From a phage: 21,344 bases of DNA. Made by a program: the position numbers and the translations under genes. Shown here in pieces: positions 4,003-20,879 of this stretch; the first letter of the stretch is position 1, and each line of letters opens with the position of its first letter. The notes beneath the pieces were generated by a model that made no database searches, was not told the DNA's origin, and was given only the letters and a program-made list of their open reading frames with translations. The stretch lies in NCBI GenBank assembly GCA_014630515.1, contig GCA_014630515.1_4091.1; one strand, 5' to 3'.

Positions 4003-4030
4003 ATTATACTTGATTCTAAGTACAATGCAA
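4003..4030 (-). promoter_or_regulatory. early sigma70-type promoter
   Basis: minus strand TTGCAT, 16 bp, TATAAT. Confidence 0.6.
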
Positions 4031-4074: not shown

Positions 4075-4166
4075 GATACACTTCCGCACCCTATGGGTCA
4101 GTGAGTTATCTCTCAATGGATATATAATAGCAAAGGGACTGACCGGAGTCAATCCCTTTTTTAATC
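4075..4166 (-). repeat. repeat element B: conserved leader motif, embedded promoter, GC hairpin with T-run
   Basis: core GCACCCTATGGGTCAGTGAG; hairpin AAAGGGACTGACCGGAGTCAATCCC plus T6; minus-strand TTGACT, 17 bp, TATTAT (4124-4152). Confidence 0.6.
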
Positions 4167-6489: not shown

Positions 6490-6545
6490 TTTTATTTCTC
6501 TCTCTTTGTTAGGAGGGGAACCATTCCCCTCGCTTGATGTAAACT

Positions 6546-6573
6546 ATTATACAGTACTAAGATACTTTGTCAA
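6546..6573 (-). promoter_or_regulatory. early sigma70-type promoter with 5' stem-loop
   Basis: minus strand TTGACA, 16 bp, TATAAT; leader hairpin GGGGAA-tgg-TTCCCC. Confidence 0.6.
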
Positions 6574-6576
6574 TAC

Positions 6577-6852
6577 TTAAGTATTGTAAATGTCGTGAAT
6601 AGTGATAAAGTTTTTACGACCGTAAACCTGCAAATCTGTATCAATAAAGTGCTTATCTAGTACATCCTCGACGCTTAACGCGGTGTCGTGGATATCTTCG
6701 TAGAATTGAGGATCTACAATCTTGCTTAAGTCATCCGGCGTTAACTTATCGTTAAGCCATTGTACCGCCTGGATATCTGCATCACGTTTCCATTGTTCCA
6801 GGTTAGTAGTCAGTACTTGTTCGATTTCGTTAGCTGTCAGTAGAATCCGCAT
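6577..6852 (-). CDS. hypothetical protein (91 aa)
   Basis: ATG 6850-6852; AAGGA SD. Confidence 0.7.
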   Translation of the reverse strand: MRILLTANEIEQVLTTNLEQWKRDADIQAVQWLNDKLTPDDLSKIVDPQFYEDIHDTALSVEDVLDKHFIDTDLQVYGRKNFITIHDIYNT

Positions 6853-6885
6853 TTTAATGTTTCCTTATCAGTGGTTGATGTAAGT

Positions 6886-6913
6886 ATTATACTCGTTTAC
6901 TTTCTATTGTCAA
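6886..6913 (-). promoter_or_regulatory. early sigma70-type promoter
   Basis: minus strand TTGACA, 16 bp, TATAAT. Confidence 0.6.
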
Positions 6914-7010
6914 ACTATTTTATCAGGGGAGTTTTTCGTGTGCCTTACTCCTGGGCTACTTAACGGGAAGTTACTTATTTCGTTCCCCGTCCTGATGTAA
7001 AACATTATAC
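6908..7010 (-). repeat. 103-bp duplicated block, copy 1 (non-coding leader between two promoters)
   Basis: identical to 18288-18390; no SD-preceded ORF; contains imperfect GGGAA/TTCCC and GGAG/CTCC inverted repeats. Confidence 0.6.
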
Positions 7011-7031
7011 TTGATTCTAAGTACAATGCAA
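7004..7031 (-). promoter_or_regulatory. early sigma70-type promoter
   Basis: minus strand TTGCAT, 16 bp, TATAAT; transcribes the duplicated block. Confidence 0.55.
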
Positions 7032-7075
7032 GTACTTTTTAAAAATAGTTTTCAGTACTAGCCACCAGCTAACAA

Positions 7076-7160
7076 TAGATACATTTATGCACCCGGTGGG
7101 CTGATTTGTTTCTATGCGTATATAATAGCAAAGGGACTGACCGGAGTCAATCCCTTTTTC
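7076..7160 (-). repeat. repeat element C: conserved leader motif, embedded promoter, GC hairpin with T-run
   Basis: core GCACCCGGTGGGCT; hairpin AAAGGGACTGACCGGAGTCAATCCC plus T5; minus-strand TTGACT, 17 bp, TATTAT (7122-7150). Confidence 0.6.
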
Positions 7161-7168
7161 AATTATTT

Positions 7169-7318
7169 TTAAACTTCTTTCGGGTTGCGATAGGTGATAG
7201 CGTTCGGGTACATTTGTTTAATGTTATTCCATGCCTGGTTAACATTGTAACCACTTGAGCGAATCAGTTGGTTACTACCGACACCTTGAAACACTACTTC
7301 GAATAAGAATTCTTTCAT
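7169..7318 (-). CDS. hypothetical small protein (49 aa), not in ORF track
   Basis: ATG 7316-7318 overlaps TGA of 7315..7488 (ATGA); AGGTGA SD 5 nt upstream; stop TAA 7169-7171. Confidence 0.5.
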   Translation of the reverse strand: MKEFLFEVVFQGVGSNQLIRSSGYNVNQAWNNIKQMYPNAITYRNPKEV

Positions 7319-7488
7319 GCTTTCACCTCGCGATCTGCTTTACCTTTACGCCAGGACATTACTAATTGTTCGCGTTGCCATAAGTCGAGTGATACAAAAA
7401 GTTTTGCGGTATCACTTTTAGGATACTCGCCATTAGTACCTAACCGATAAAACAGATCTTTCAGTACTGATAATTCTACTTGGATCAT
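7315..7488 (-). CDS. hypothetical protein (57 aa)
   Basis: ATG 7486-7488; AGGAA SD 6 nt upstream; track start 7590 lies in promoter. Confidence 0.6.
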   Translation of the reverse strand: MIQVELSVLKDLFYRLGTNGEYPKSDTAKLFVSLDLWQREQLVMSWRKGKADREVKA

Positions 7489-9166: not shown

Positions 9167-9464
9167 TATTTTAACCTCATTATAAAAATACTATAGTACT
9201 GTAACGCGACAAGTATATTACTTGTTCTTACTTTTTCCAATCCATACGACACGACATATTCATCCCCATATGTGCGGATCACCACACCATGAAAATTTTT
9301 ATACACTTCCACTACTAATCATAACCTTTCGTCTAACCAACTGCATAGAATTATACTACTTTACGCAAATTGATCAAGTATTGATCAGATCATTTTTTGA
9401 TCAATATTAGACAGCTACATTTGTGCACCCTATGGGTTAGTGACGTTCTCGTCTTGATGTAAGT

Positions 9465-11772: not shown

Positions 11773-11805
11773 TGTAGTACTCCTTATTAGATTGATATAT
11801 TTTAT

Positions 11806-11892
11806 TTACACTTCCGCACCCGGTGGGCTAGTGAGCTATCTCTCAATGAATATATAATAGCAAAATGGCTGACCGAAGTCAACCACTTTTTT
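11806..11892 (-). repeat. repeat element D: conserved leader motif, embedded promoter, variant hairpin
   Basis: core GCACCCGGTGGGCTAGTGAG; hairpin TGGCTGACCGAAGTCAACCA with compensatory changes relative to A-C; T6 on plus strand; minus-strand TTGACT, 17 bp, TATTAT (11854-11882). Confidence 0.6.
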
Positions 11893-12029
11893 CATTTATT
11901 TTTAGCTTTCAGAATCGCCGCCTTTCGCGTCATGCCTTGCTTGATGTACTCCTTTACTTTCGCTTTACGTGCTTTCGCTTTATCTGCTTTCGTTTTAGGA
12001 GTACTGTAAATTAAACCGTTAGGATTCAT
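11892..12029 (-). CDS. lysine-rich small protein (45 aa), not in ORF track
   Basis: ATG 12027-12029 directly follows TAA of 12030..12119 (TAAATG); about one third Lys/Arg; stop TGA 11892-11894. Confidence 0.45.
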   Translation of the reverse strand: MNPNGLIYSTPKTKADKAKARKAKVKEYIKQGMTRKAAILKAKNK

Positions 12030-12318: not shown

Positions 12319-12346
12319 ATTATACAGTACTGAAAACTAATTGCAA
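12319..12346 (-). promoter_or_regulatory. early sigma70-type promoter with 5' stem-loop
   Basis: minus strand TTGCAA, 16 bp, TATAAT. Confidence 0.6.
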
Positions 12347-12875: not shown

Positions 12876-12903
12876 ATTATACAGTACTGAAAACTAATTG
12901 CAA
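12876..12903 (-). promoter_or_regulatory. early sigma70-type promoter with 5' stem-loop
   Basis: minus strand TTGCAA, 16 bp, TATAAT; leader hairpin GCGGGAA-ctatt-CCCGC. Confidence 0.6.
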
Positions 12904-15150: not shown

Positions 15151-15633
15151 TTATGCTTCAACTTTGCGATGAGCTTCGATCCATTCCTCGCGAGTCATAC
15201 CGCTTTCTTTGATAGCGTCCAGTACTACCGCAATGCAGTTACCGCGTACAGGAATCATATGTTCTTCCCCGTTATCAAGTACTACAGTAACACGTTCTTG
15301 AATCCATTTTTTAGGTTTAGATTCTGGCTTATCTTCACCATACTTAACCGCCAGGGCTTTATGTGCCATTTCTACAACTACTTCCAGATCCAATCCAGAC
15401 ACCGCCGCCTGGATACTTTCAATTGTTGCTTGCAGTTCGGCTTCACGGGCTTTTTTCTGTTCTTCCAGTTCTGCTACCTTTTTGGCTTGCAGTTCTTTAG
15501 CTTCACTGTACGCAATGTTAAAATTGTTGCGTACTGCTTTCATGGTATCGTTATCCAGGTCAGCCAGCAATTCAGCAGCAATAACAGTATCGTTTGAAAT
15601 CAGTGCTTTCAGGAATGATTTTACATTAGCCAT
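15151..15633 (-). CDS. hypothetical protein (160 aa), Ala/Glu/Lys-rich central region
   Basis: ATG 15631-15633; GAGGA SD 8 nt upstream; long ~120-nt leader. Confidence 0.7.
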   Translation of the reverse strand: MANVKSFLKALISNDTVIAAELLADLDNDTMKAVRNNFNIAYSEAKELQAKKVAELEEQKKAREAELQATIESIQAAVSGLDLEVVVEMAHKALAVKYGEDKPESKPKKWIQERVTVVLDNGEEHMIPVRGNCIAVVLDAIKESGMTREEWIEAHRKVEA

Positions 15634-15756
15634 TTTATAAATCCTCAATTAAAGTTTAGTTTACGTTTATTAGTGTATCAAAGTTTTATCGACGTGTCCA
15701 GTTTTTCGTTCGACTTACTGGCGGTCTACTTAGTGCTCCCCGTCTTGATGTAATAC

Positions 15757-15784
15757 ATTCTACGCCTTTTTGTGGTAATGTCAA
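15757..15784 (-). promoter_or_regulatory. sigma70-type promoter
   Basis: minus strand TTGACA, 16 bp, TAGAAT; followed by a diverged copy of the duplicated leader block (15665-15750). Confidence 0.5.
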
Positions 15785-16328: not shown

Positions 16329-16425
16329 ATAAAGACGAGATAGTCACTAACCCACAGGGTGCATAGATCCGTCTATTAAATGATTCAGTACTGCAAAATA
16401 AAGGGGATCGTTTGATCCCCTCTGT
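16329..16425 (+). ncRNA. candidate small RNA (plus strand) carrying the conserved leader motif
   Basis: starts ~7 nt after the 16294-16322 promoter, contains GAGATAGTCACTAACCCACAGGGTGC, ends at hairpin 16402-16421; no SD-preceded ORF. Confidence 0.3.
16393..16421 (-). terminator. rho-independent terminator (minus strand)
   Basis: minus strand AGGGGATC-aaac-GATCCCCT followed by TTTATTTTG; 5 nt after stop of 16427..16648. Confidence 0.65.
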
Positions 16426-16699: not shown

Positions 16700-16727
16700 A
16701 TTATACAGTACTGGAAACTAATTGCAA
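16700..16727 (-). promoter_or_regulatory. early sigma70-type promoter with 5' stem-loop
   Basis: minus strand TTGCAA, 16 bp, TATAAT. Confidence 0.6.
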
Positions 16728-17621: not shown

Positions 17622-18233
17622 TTAATATTCGATAGATTCTACTACATCGTCGATAACGTTAAATTGATATTCGTTACCCTCAATCAGTCCTACAATGTTT
17701 TCAGTAGTAAACTGGTCTTCATAAGCATTTTCTAAATCACGGTACAGCTTACAAGATAATTCTCGGATAGTATCAGTCAGTAAGTTTTCCAGATCCTCAG
17801 CCAATGCAGCCTGTTTTACAGTTAAATCAGTGTAGCGAGTATCAACGCAACCGCCTACCGTGTTTTCGTGAGCGTAGCGTGATTGGGAACGTTCTACACT
17901 CATTTCCAAATCATCTTCGTTCAATAGGTGACGGATGGAACGATATTTCGTTAACGCCTTAACCTTGCGTAAAAACTTCTCAGCGTCAACGTGGTCAGTA
18001 CTGATTGATGCACCGTCACCTTGCGACCAAAAACCACTGTATTGCAATTCAGCTTCATCTATGCCGTATTCTGGCAGTACTGTTTCTTTATAGTATTCCA
18101 GTACTGATTCAGCAAAGAAATTATCCTCACTTGCACGTTCCCGATCCCGAACCAGTTCGATAGCCGCCGCTTGTTGTTCTGCGTTCAGTTCAGAAAAATC
18201 CATAACGAAAGTAGTAGTAGTGATAGTTTTCAT
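17622..18233 (-). CDS. acidic protein (203 aa)
   Basis: ATG 18231-18233; GAGGG SD; strongly Asp/Glu-rich; largest gene in the window. Confidence 0.7.
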   Translation of the reverse strand: MKTITTTTFVMDFSELNAEQQAAAIELVRDRERASEDNFFAESVLEYYKETVLPEYGIDEAELQYSGFWSQGDGASISTDHVDAEKFLRKVKALTKYRSIRHLLNEDDLEMSVERSQSRYAHENTVGGCVDTRYTDLTVKQAALAEDLENLLTDTIRELSCKLYRDLENAYEDQFTTENIVGLIEGNEYQFNVIDDVVESIEY

Positions 18234-18265: not shown

Positions 18266-18293
18266 ATTATACGCTTTTAAAAACAATTGTCAA
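18266..18293 (-). promoter_or_regulatory. early sigma70-type promoter
   Basis: minus strand TTGACA, 16 bp, TATAAT. Confidence 0.6.
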
Positions 18294-18390
18294 ACTATTT
18301 TATCAGGGGAGTTTTTCGTGTGCCTTACTCCTGGGCTACTTAACGGGAAGTTACTTATTTCGTTCCCCGTCCTGATGTAAAACATTATAC
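18288..18390 (-). repeat. 103-bp duplicated block, copy 2
   Basis: identical to 6908-7010; lies between two tandem promoters upstream of 17622..18233. Confidence 0.6.
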
Positions 18391-18411
18391 GCCTTTAAAC
18401 ATAGTTTGCAA
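18384..18411 (-). promoter_or_regulatory. early sigma70-type promoter
   Basis: minus strand TTGCAA, 16 bp, TATAAT. Confidence 0.55.
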
Positions 18412-18444
18412 GTACTTTTTGAAAATAGTTTTTATCTCTTTCAT

Positions 18445-18526
18445 ATAGATACATTCCCGCACCCTATGGGCTATCGCCTTGTGTCCGGCTTGTAAGTATT
18501 ATCTCACTAAGCCGGATAACGGTCAA
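18445..18526 (-). repeat. repeat element G: promoter with conserved leader motif and flanking inverted repeat
   Basis: minus strand TTGACC, 17 bp, GATAAT (18498-18526); inverted repeat CCGGCTT/AAGCCGG brackets the -10; leader has CCCATAGGGTGCGGGAATG. Confidence 0.5.
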
Positions 18527-19579: not shown

Positions 19580-19635
19580 CGTATTAATCTCTTTTAAAGT
19601 GTAGCGGGAAGTGTTCCCGCTCTCGATGTAAAACA

Positions 19636-19663
19636 TTATACGCCTTTAAACATAGTTTGCAAG
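19636..19663 (-). promoter_or_regulatory. early sigma70-type promoter with 5' stem-loop
   Basis: minus strand TTGCAA, 16 bp, TATAAT. Confidence 0.6.
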
Positions 19664-19926: not shown

Positions 19927-20113
19927 TACTACATAGACGCGAGAAAGCGGATACCCCAGGGGGTGGGAAGATCCGTCCAAAATTCAAGATATAAAAAAAG
20001 GATAGACTCCCGCACCCTAGCAGGTTAACGCACTTTCTCAGTACTGAATTATAGTACCATAGTCCGGCCCAGGATGGCAAGCAAATTAATTAAAACTTTT
20101 TTCATCCAGGGTA

Positions 20114-20141: not shown

Positions 20142-20239
20142 AGTTCCATCAAGTCGAGAAAGACTCAAGCCCACCGGGTGCATAGTTACGCCCAAAATTC
20201 AGTACTGAAAAAAATTTTTAAAAATATCCGTCCAGGCCG

Positions 20240-20359: not shown

Positions 20360-20480
20360 TTGATTTAGCCGTCTATACTTCCAGACGTGTAACCATCTAG
20401 CCGTTTAGCCGTCCAAACGTCTAGCCATCCAGCCATCCAGAAATCTAGACGTTTAGCCGTCTAGATGGATAGCCATCTTT
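20360..20480. repeat. iteron-like direct-repeat array
   Basis: 7 copies of YAGCCRTY within ~115 bp (TTTAGCCGTC at 20364, 20404, 20452); also CTAGACGT/CTAGATGG and ACTTCCAGAC repeats; preceded by A-rich tract 20341-20360. Confidence 0.5.
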
Positions 20481-20879
20481 ACTTCCAGACTTCTGGAGGG
20501 CTAGACATATCTACGTCCAAAATCCATCCAGGGTAACTACGCCCAAAATCCGTCAGTACTATACCATAGATCTATCTTTTGAAAGGGAGTATTCAGTACT
20601 GCCATCATAGCCCTCACTATGTTACCCTAGGAGGATGAAGACTATCATGTAGTACTGAATACTGTTAGAGGGAATCCACCAGCACAAGCTGGTGGCATAA
20701 TGCTTTAGATTAAAATCAGTACTGACACCATTCTGTTAATATCAGTACTGTTATTACGATTTTCATATGAGGTTCAAAAAGATGTACCACCACAGGAGGA
20801 ACTATCTTTTCTGTACTGTCTCACGACAGGAGGTAGAGTAAATGAATTGTTCGCAGCAACTCATCTCTCTATGTAGAAC

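Follow-up and report, generated by a model that had tools for sequence, protein, structure and literature searches.

A stretch of phage DNA of 21,344 nt (NCBI GenBank assembly GCA_014630515.1, contig GCA_014630515.1_4091.1), referred to as a whole as the window, carries a block that is present in two identical copies and a third, diverged one, and each block encodes an RNA domain of 60-85 nt directly 3' of a strong sigma-70 early promoter. This domain is very probably a conserved structured RNA. Its element order is that of an H-type pseudoknot, the helices of which covary among 45 distinct sequences, and the same motif occupies the spacer between the early promoters A1 and A2 of phage T7. We propose it as a candidate for a new family of structured RNAs, one that is found in the early leaders of T7 and further phages of enterobacteria and has a well-supported structure. 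The original prediction, which was made from the window alone, had suggested a structured leader or small RNA, and the covarying helices support this idea; the pseudoknot, the large family that includes the T7 A1-A2 spacer and the independence of the element from the downstream gene are added by the present analysis.

The window derives from an Asteriusvirus, one of the ~350-kb E. coli jumbo phages of the PBECO4/121Q/G17 group. It corresponds to their direct terminal repeat, which in vB_Ec-M-J is annotated as nt 1-21525 (~21.5 kb), and three copies of the motif lie inside it. Copy A (6906-7010) and copy B (18286-18390) are 100% identical over 105 bp and lie on the minus strand, as do all genes and promoters in the region of the copies. 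The exact repeat of 103 bp that was initially noticed (6908-7010 and 18288-18390) is thus real and 2 bp longer. In 20 shuffles of the window the longest exact repeat was 16 bp. The flanks of the two copies share 71-79% identity over ~40 bp per side and ~25% beyond that. A diverged third copy had been placed at 15665-15750, and it was recovered as copy C (~15688-15749), likewise on the minus strand, with 56.2 bits in the covariance model and a pattern match at 15700-15732. Copies A, B and C all scored ~56 bits (E ~1e-16), whereas the next site in the window reached 8.9 bits, and a pattern with 26 specified bases matched these three copies only (expected number of matches: 0). Each block is bounded by two consensus sigma-70 promoters, beginning at the -10 hexamer of the first and ending at the -35 hexamer of the second. 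The proposed location between tandem promoters therefore holds for copies A and B; in copy C the second promoter is degenerate. The transcription start of copy A was assigned by register with the annotated start of T7 A1 at nt 498 (the A of ATCGAGAGGG). The features of the three copies are as follows.

7004..7031, minus strand: upstream early promoter P1 of copy A, TTGCAT-16-TATAAT (regular-expression promoter scan)
6996, minus strand: inferred transcription start of copy A, the A of AUCAGG, 7 nt past the -10 hexamer (register with T7 A1)
6922..6996, minus strand: RNA domain of copy A, closed by helix P1 (covariance-model match 6924-6992, 56.5 bits)
6991-6996 with 6922-6927, minus strand: helix P1 of copy A, AUCAGG with CCUGAU (in the minimum-free-energy fold)
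6963..6990, minus strand: optional hairpin P0 of copy A, ACGGGGAA ... UUCCCGU (fold)
6954..6962, minus strand: conserved UAAGUAG and 5' strand of helix S1 of copy A, GUAGCC at 6954-6959 (alignment, covariation)
6948..6951, minus strand: 5' strand of helix S2 of copy A, GGAG (covariation, RNAalifold)
6938..6944, minus strand: 3' strand of S1 of copy A, GGC, bulged A, CAC (middle pair C6955-G6943)
6932..6937, minus strand: A-rich loop L3 of copy A, GAAAAA (GAAAA invariant in the alignment)
6928..6931, minus strand: 3' strand of S2 of copy A, CUCC (covariation, RNAalifold)
6886..6913, minus strand: downstream promoter P2 of copy A, TTGACA-16-TATAAT, a 12/12 consensus match that drives open reading frame (ORF) 6577-6852
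18384..18411, minus strand: upstream promoter P1 of copy B, TTGCAA-16-TATAAT (promoter scan)
18302..18376, minus strand: RNA domain of copy B, identical to copy A, with sub-parts at the copy A coordinates + 11380 (covariance-model match 18304-18372, 56.5 bits)
18266..18293, minus strand: downstream promoter P2 of copy B, TTGACA-16-TATAAT (promoter scan), which drives ORF 17622-18233
15757..15784, minus strand: promoter of copy C, TTGACA-16-TAGAAT, inferred start A15749 (promoter scan)
15688..15749, minus strand: RNA domain of copy C, a short form without P0 (covariance-model match 15694-15763; pattern match; fold)
15741-15744 with 15691-15694, minus strand: helix P1 of copy C, GACG with CGUC (fold)
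15724-15729 with 15708-15714, minus strand: S1 of copy C, with L3 at 15702-15707
15718-15721 with 15698-15701, minus strand: S2 of copy C, CCAG with CUGG
15653..15681, minus strand: degenerate second promoter of copy C, TTGATA-17-TAAACT (9/12 match, aligns with P2 of copies A and B), followed by a Shine-Dalgarno sequence and ORF 15151-15633

The core of the domain comprises ~45 nt and reads UAAGUAG-GNC-(1-2 nt)-S2 5' strand-(A)UAA-GN'C-N-NAY-GAAAA(N)-S2 3' strand. Its elements follow the order S1a-L1-S2a-L2-S1b-L3-S2b, which is that of an H-type pseudoknot with an A-rich L3. S1 is formed by GUAGNC with GN'C, a single bulged base and NAY, and was found to be paired at 95.2% in the 45 distinct sequences. 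S2 is a helix of 4-5 bp that is free in sequence; it was paired at 96.4%, and four of the five pairs have changed on both sides. At the middle pair of S1, 33 sequences have A-U, six U-A, five C-G and one G-C, and none is unpaired there, although many of the sequences are close T7-like relatives, so that such cell counts overstate the number of independent events. Middle pairs other than A-U occur in separate lineages, namely the window type together with muut, L024/L028, 121Q, L008, LIMEzero, L115 and L109. When the 3' partners were slid by 1-3 columns, pairing fell from 89% to 20-37%, and no shuffle reached the observed covariation score. RNAalifold found S2 independently, and AAGUAG and GAAAA were both invariant (alignment A2).

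Two further helices surround the core. The hairpin P0 is present 5' of UAAGUAG in most T7-like copies and in copies A and B, and absent from copy C. Its stem sequence varies freely, and in T7-like phages its position covaries (CCGG/CCGG, UCCAG/CUGGA, CCAC/GUGG, CGGG/CCCG). Helix P1 is predicted in every form other than that of T7; it joins the first nucleotides of the transcript with the sequence just 3' of S2 and is lineage-specific in sequence. The imperfect inverted repeats that had been seen inside the block thus correspond to the helices P1, P0 and S2. Folding of single sequences combined with covariance analysis had been put forward as a check, and the two parts differed in outcome: covariation supports the structure, while the fold of single sequences is unremarkable (energy z-scores of -1.5 for copies A/B in sense and -0.26 in antisense orientation, and 0.04 for copy C), so that RNAfold alone could not have decided the matter.

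The pairing pattern also bears on the question whether the block acts as RNA or as DNA. G-U pairs were found 15 times at the outer pair of S2 and seven times in S1; on the opposite strand they would be C-A mismatches, which assigns the structure to the transcribed strand. If the block were instead an upstream region of the second promoter, such as a UP-element-like A-tract or a factor binding site, the RNA fold would be incidental. An A-tract does lie at about -46 to -42 of A2 in T7-like phages, a promoter lies 3' of most copies, and S2 ends 2 nt before the -35 hexamer at a constant spacing (d=7) in ~30 T7-like contigs. However, the helices change their sequence and yet keep their pairing, unlike a palindrome that is read by a protein, and the G-U pairs give the structure a strand. 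Furthermore, the distance to the next -35 hexamer ranges from 6 to 41 nt across forms, the motif is not followed by any promoter in LIMEzero, L024 and L028, and copy C and EJP2 keep an intact motif in front of degenerate promoters. A DNA-level role is thus very improbable.

As originally predicted, the blocks hold no ORF that is preceded by a Shine-Dalgarno sequence. On the sense strand no ORF begins 3' of the transcription start at the blocks; the sense ORFs present (38 and 32 aa) begin at a TTG within the upstream promoter, and the AGGAG seen in copies A and B belongs to a helix that covaries, of which it forms the 5' strand. Since L1 and L2 differ in length by 1 nt among family members, which breaks any reading frame, the block does not behave as a protein-coding micro-gene. 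In Erwinia jumbo phage Hallingskeid (L003 1169-1282) an annotated 37-aa 'hypothetical protein' runs across the pseudoknot and starts at the TTG of the upstream -35 hexamer, and 37-aa ORFs are likewise annotated over the pseudoknot in UPEC06 (L004 1193-1306) and in several Asteriusvirus records. These ORFs are very likely annotation artefacts.

Conservation beyond this genome, on which the original prediction had been made to depend, was found in T7 and at least five other phage lineages. By BLAST, every Asteriusvirus record contains the A/B block, and phages of ~145 kb contain it at 89-92% identity. The latter comprise four records that are assigned to or closely match Stephanstirmvirinae (muut and its duplicate RefSeq record, outra and EmilieFrey) and the unclassified phages A73, W70, A7_1 and A5-4. 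The cassette is shared with Justusliebigvirus muut together with its 91-aa gene (96% amino-acid identity). The short form of copy C occurs in Hallingskeid, two Vequintavirinae and EJP2, and within Vequintavirinae and Stephanstirmvirinae the presence of the element is sporadic. A scan of IMG/VR with a pattern derived from the window copies only gave no matches, as this pattern was too strict; the pattern of the shared core identified ~35 T7-like contigs of 37-45 kb, T7 included. With the T7 A1-A2 spacer as query, BLAST matched 471 phage records, the hosts of which are Escherichia, Klebsiella, Salmonella, Yersinia, Enterobacter, Shigella, Citrobacter, Serratia, Pantoea and others. Pantoea phage LIMEzero, which was not part of the model seed, scored 49 bits.

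Pattern matches in bacterial genomes and metagenomes were bimodal in score, with true copies at 50 bits or more, all of them on phage-like contigs, and chance matches at or below 32.5 bits. A scan of genome contigs gave 17 matches in unrelated taxa, one of which (L052, 85 bits) is a mis-binned T7-like contig; among the others, those that reached E 0.001 scored at most 29 bits and were rejected as chance. No copy was found in the E. coli genomes, plasmids and prophages searched. A weak second covariance-model match in L041 (16.4 bits) was dismissed because its sequence lacks UAAGUAG.

In T7 the motif covers nt ~521-595, corresponding to +24 to +98 of the A1 transcript, and ends 2 bases before the -35 hexamer of A2. 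The covariance model assigned 80.8 bits to nt 521-590, between the annotated starts of A1 (498) and A2 (626), and the T7 reference record carries no annotation over the motif. The first T7 gene lies 330 nt further on, past two more promoters, and of the three T7 early promoters A1 alone carries the motif. The corresponding spacers of T7, T3 and the T7-like phages of Yersinia, Klebsiella, Serratia and Pantoea share UAAGUAG, S1, S2 and GAAAAA with the window copies, and in T7 as in the window the motif lies 3' of a strong promoter of the host polymerase and 5' of the next promoter. The initial transcribed sequence of T7 A1, AUCGAGAGGG, is also present at several window promoters. The T7-type copies differ in having a P0 with an RGUCAA loop, no helix P1, one extra nucleotide in L2 and a knot that begins at about +54. 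No description of the element was found in the literature, though most older subscription papers on T7 lay beyond the reach of the search; the T7 spacer sequence itself appears in three of the papers searched, in one of which it is only a portion of a cloned promoter fragment.

The T7 A2-A3 spacer (nt ~690-745; UAAGCGCAC...AUAAGGUGAAACAAAACGG, CUUAAGCGCAC...AUAAGGUGAAACAAAACGG-UUGACA) resembles by eye a decayed half-copy, with a possible CAC/GUG S1 and no S2. The covariance model does not detect it, and no claim is made for it. A2 and A3 of T7 may have arisen by duplication of a unit of motif plus promoter.

A search of Rfam 15, proposed as a check beforehand, matched no family: the whole window at gathering thresholds and T7 nt 400-1000 gave no matches, and window positions 6850-7060 with E up to 10 gave only CRISPR-DR65 (18.4 versus 43 bits) and the PutA thermometer (13.9 versus 51 bits), both off the motif. 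CsrA, Hfq, mimicry of CRISPR repeats and known ribozymes were dropped, as the respective motifs or Rfam matches were lacking. Resemblances to 16S rRNA (AAGUCGAACG) and to the rrn leader (GUCGCAAGACGAAAAA) were likewise dropped, since the bases that match are located at NN positions, which vary within the family. A small RNA that ends at its own terminator was rejected, as the stretch from the motif to the next gene contains no terminator-like site; the sole such site in 6500-7400 is located upstream, at 7157-7130.

Small pseudoknot riboswitches such as preQ1-I and SAM-II have a similar architecture. The compactness of the H-type pseudoknot, its A-rich L3 and its invariant nucleotides at the junctions would suit an aptamer for a small ligand, which could serve as a riboswitch or as a sponge for a metabolite or an immune signalling nucleotide. 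Yet no Rfam riboswitch model matched even at E up to 10, an expression platform (a terminator or a sequestered Shine-Dalgarno sequence) is absent, and the downstream genes are mutually unrelated. ORFs 6577-6852, 17622-18233 and 15151-15633 belong to phrog_14947, phrog_5162 and phrog_27871, respectively, and Pfam and PHROGs gave only assignments of unknown function for their proteins. A riboswitch was rejected on these grounds, and aptamer function in general appears very unlikely.

The copies in the window are embedded in an array of promoter cassettes. About 37 near-identical early promoters lie on the minus strand of the window, and the motif is found at three of them only. Downstream of most window promoters lie, in this order, a hairpin (7-bp stem, 4-nt loop), a Shine-Dalgarno sequence and a small ORF to which no function is assigned. 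This hairpin (GGGAGAA-AUGG-UUCUCCC and variants) begins ~8 nt past the start and is followed by ACUAA, the Shine-Dalgarno sequence and AUG; ~30 minus-strand promoters bear it, e.g. those at 19635-19662, 16700-16727, 12876-12903 and 4003-4030. The promoter-early stem-loop (PeSL) cassettes of T4-type phages contain a stem-loop that is a terminator, and recombination between their repeated promoters shuffles cassettes (Arbiol et al., 2010; PMC2839356); see also Comeau et al. (2014; PMC4122927). The window resembles these cassettes in that repeated strong sigma-70 early promoters with a stem-loop flank small variable genes. Unlike in PeSLs, its hairpin lies 3' of the -10 hexamer, in the 5' untranslated region, and lacks the U-run of a terminator. 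PeSLs do not contain the pseudoknot motif, and the block is a cargo of the array and not the repeat itself. No tRNA or tmRNA genes are present in the window.

Recombination between repeated promoters would explain how a block is duplicated exactly despite differing flanks. The identity between copies A and B is 100% within the window and 96.2% within 121Q, whereas the same locus is 92.4% identical between the window and 121Q. Both 121Q copies have four core differences in common, among them a compensatory change in S1, and genomes that share 93-96% identity over the surrounding 1 kb have the block at 100% identity. Paralogues within a genome are therefore closer than the same locus between genomes, supporting the duplication or gene conversion that had been proposed. 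Judged from these comparisons, the identity of A and B fits concerted evolution, through either gene conversion or cassette replacement between the repeated promoters. A metagenomic Asteriusvirus with differing A-type and B-type copies (GUC/GAC versus GCC/GGC) shows that homogenisation is not universal.

Such an array could also have produced a block without function, left as the remnant of a leader when a gene was deleted between repeated promoters and then copied by recombination. A cassette array of repeated promoters invites such events, and the promoter spacers around the identical block do differ. However, T7-like podoviruses, jumbo phages and rV5-like myoviruses all retain the sequence together with its covarying structure, and conservation is higher in the block than in the coding sequence next to it, which makes a functionless by-product the least probable of the explanations considered here.

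Several repeats in the window lie outside the motif. A repeat family that combines the terminator-like hairpin AAAGGGATTGACTCCGGTCAGTCCCTTT, an embedded TTGACT-17-TATTAT promoter and AGCCCA-NN-GGGTGC ~20 nt past the -10 hexamer has copies at 2156-2240, 4077-4161, 7075-7159 and 11786-11900, shorter copies at 9395-9439 and 18429-18473, and inverted copies at 16346-16381, 19992-20019 and 20157-20184; one copy lies directly upstream of the cassette of copy A. The palindrome AGTACT occurs 133 times in 21.3 kb (6.7 expected; maximum of 14 in 200 shuffles), e.g. at 7033-7038, 12324-12331 and 16705-16712. CAGTACTG occurs 42 times in the window, and the next commonest 6-bp palindrome, TTTAAA, 35 times. 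Many AGTACT sites are built into the early promoters (AAAAAGTACTTGCAA at -35 and CAGTACTG just before TATAAT), and others lie within ORFs; a protein for early shut-off might use AGTACT as its operator, or the palindrome might be linked to DNA modification or restriction. Near the window end that corresponds to the inner boundary of the terminal repeat, positions 20370-20521 consist of units with a period of ~8 bp (CCGTCTAG, CCATCCAG, CCGTTTAG ...) that may be involved in packaging, the repeat boundary or protein binding.

With regard to function, we tentatively favour, as the most probable of several readings though held with less than even confidence, a stand-alone immediate-early RNA domain that acts on a host factor in trans and independently of the downstream gene. 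The element always lies 3' of a strong host early promoter at the early-gene end of the genome and shows no tie to any downstream gene, which points to a stand-alone RNA. In the window it fills the gene slot of a promoter-flanked cassette and is followed by a second promoter and unrelated genes. That the motif is found at few promoters, is present in several copies in the jumbo phage and has moved among unrelated phages that share Enterobacterales hosts suggests in addition that the RNA binds a host component. The RNA would be made from the first early promoters read by the host polymerase, in the first seconds of infection, would bind a conserved host component through its invariant single-stranded nucleotides and those of S1 and L3, and would act as an abundant decoy or modulator rather than as a regulator of the gene behind it. 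Two observations weigh against such a role: as there is no terminator 3' of the motif, the motif forms the physical 5' portion of longer mRNAs, unless processing releases it, and in LIMEzero, L024 and L028 it holds the position that is expected of a cis-acting antitermination element.

A cis-acting element is accordingly the main rival, one that we regard as possible but rather improbable. Here the nascent pseudoknot would stay with, or load factors onto, its own host RNA polymerase, in the manner of HK022 put or as a boxB-type partner of boxA, and would confer resistance to pausing, Rho or collisions with polymerases bound at the next promoters. The motif is always ~10-100 nt from a strong early start, and the lack of a terminator 3' of it would keep it attached to the elongating transcript. 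The order in LIMEzero, L024 and L028, which are Pantoea-type and related podoviruses, is host promoter, pseudoknot closed by helix P1, consensus boxA (CGCUCUUUA) 22-37 nt downstream of the motif and first gene, with no second promoter, just as boxB lies upstream of boxA in rrn leaders. The loci concerned are as follows.

690-800 of L066: LIMEzero
4083-4180 of L028: LIMEzero-type locus
5358-5460 of L024: LIMEzero-type locus

In T7 and many of its relatives a boxA follows A3, 120-380 nt downstream of the motif, and the A1 leader of T7 is untranslated over more than 400 nt; long untranslated RNA of this kind would be a target of Rho.

The rival is weakened by the fact that most early transcripts lack the motif. 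Among the ~37 window promoters 34 are without it, which would be odd for a put-like antiterminator, and the gene behind the motif has its own promoter. In T7-like phages only the A1 transcripts carry the motif, not those of A2 and A3, yet boxA lies downstream of all three. In the window no boxA was found (a single match with two mismatches versus 2.8 expected by chance). The put RNA of HK022 is a promoter-proximal structured RNA of ~70 nt, made by the host polymerase at the start of early transcription, that needs no protein. The element is likewise a promoter-proximal structured RNA of phage early transcription, but put consists of two stem-loops and shows no similarity to the pseudoknot in sequence or structure. 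When covariance model R1 was run with filters off over HK022 nt 24000-32000 (IS903 to O, the nun-cI-cro region), an interval assumed to hold the put sites of the PL/PR region, the best match had 7.4 bits and E 0.37, and put was rejected. A boxB-type hairpin was rejected as well: boxB has a 5-bp stem and a GNRA-like pentaloop, whereas the loop of S2 measures 16-17 nt and is part of a pseudoknot. Leaders of the nut type, known from lambdoid phages and rrn operons, have an A-rich GAAAA in a hairpin loop as well; this likeness does not imply an N-like protein here.

Protection or processing of the 5' end was considered as a further role in cis. Helix P1 would bury the 5' triphosphate and the knot would block RNase E, stabilising the P1-derived mRNA, or the structure would serve as a processing mark. 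In every jumbo-phage and myovirus form helix P1 begins within 1-3 nt of the inferred start, and it has an A-rich single-stranded tract on its 3' side, and the ordinary window promoters also place a 7-bp hairpin just past the start. A simple hairpin such as that at these 30-odd other promoters would however suffice for this purpose, so that the invariant loop nucleotides and the S1 shared across families would go unexplained, and T7-type forms have no helix P1 at all. We consider end protection unlikely.

Going one step beyond the favoured trans-acting RNA, the element could be the first example of a class of RNA effectors in phages, acting as a counter-measure or take-over device that consists of RNA alone. 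It would be produced immediately early, within seconds, from the DNA that enters the cell first, and would inactivate or redirect a conserved enterobacterial protein. This proposal is speculative and more probably wrong than right by a wide measure. Its target might be a nucleic-acid-handling defence enzyme, e.g. a reverse transcriptase, or a core RNA-binding or transcription factor, and horizontal transfer would have carried the element between T7-like podoviruses, rV5-like myoviruses and jumbo phages. The combination of a conserved S1, an A-rich L3 and a free S2 recalls selected pseudoknot inhibitors of HIV reverse transcriptase.

Few viruses have been studied as thoroughly as T7, and its A1-A2 DNA is part of countless laboratory constructs, yet the pseudoknot is unannotated and absent from Rfam. 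For genome annotation, recognition of the family removes spurious small 'hypothetical proteins' and provides a marker for that end of these genomes which leads and is expressed first. Should the structure be confirmed, the first RNA made by these phages would carry an unrecognised function, for which control of the host polymerase, protection from Rho or RNases and an RNA-only answer to host defence are candidates.

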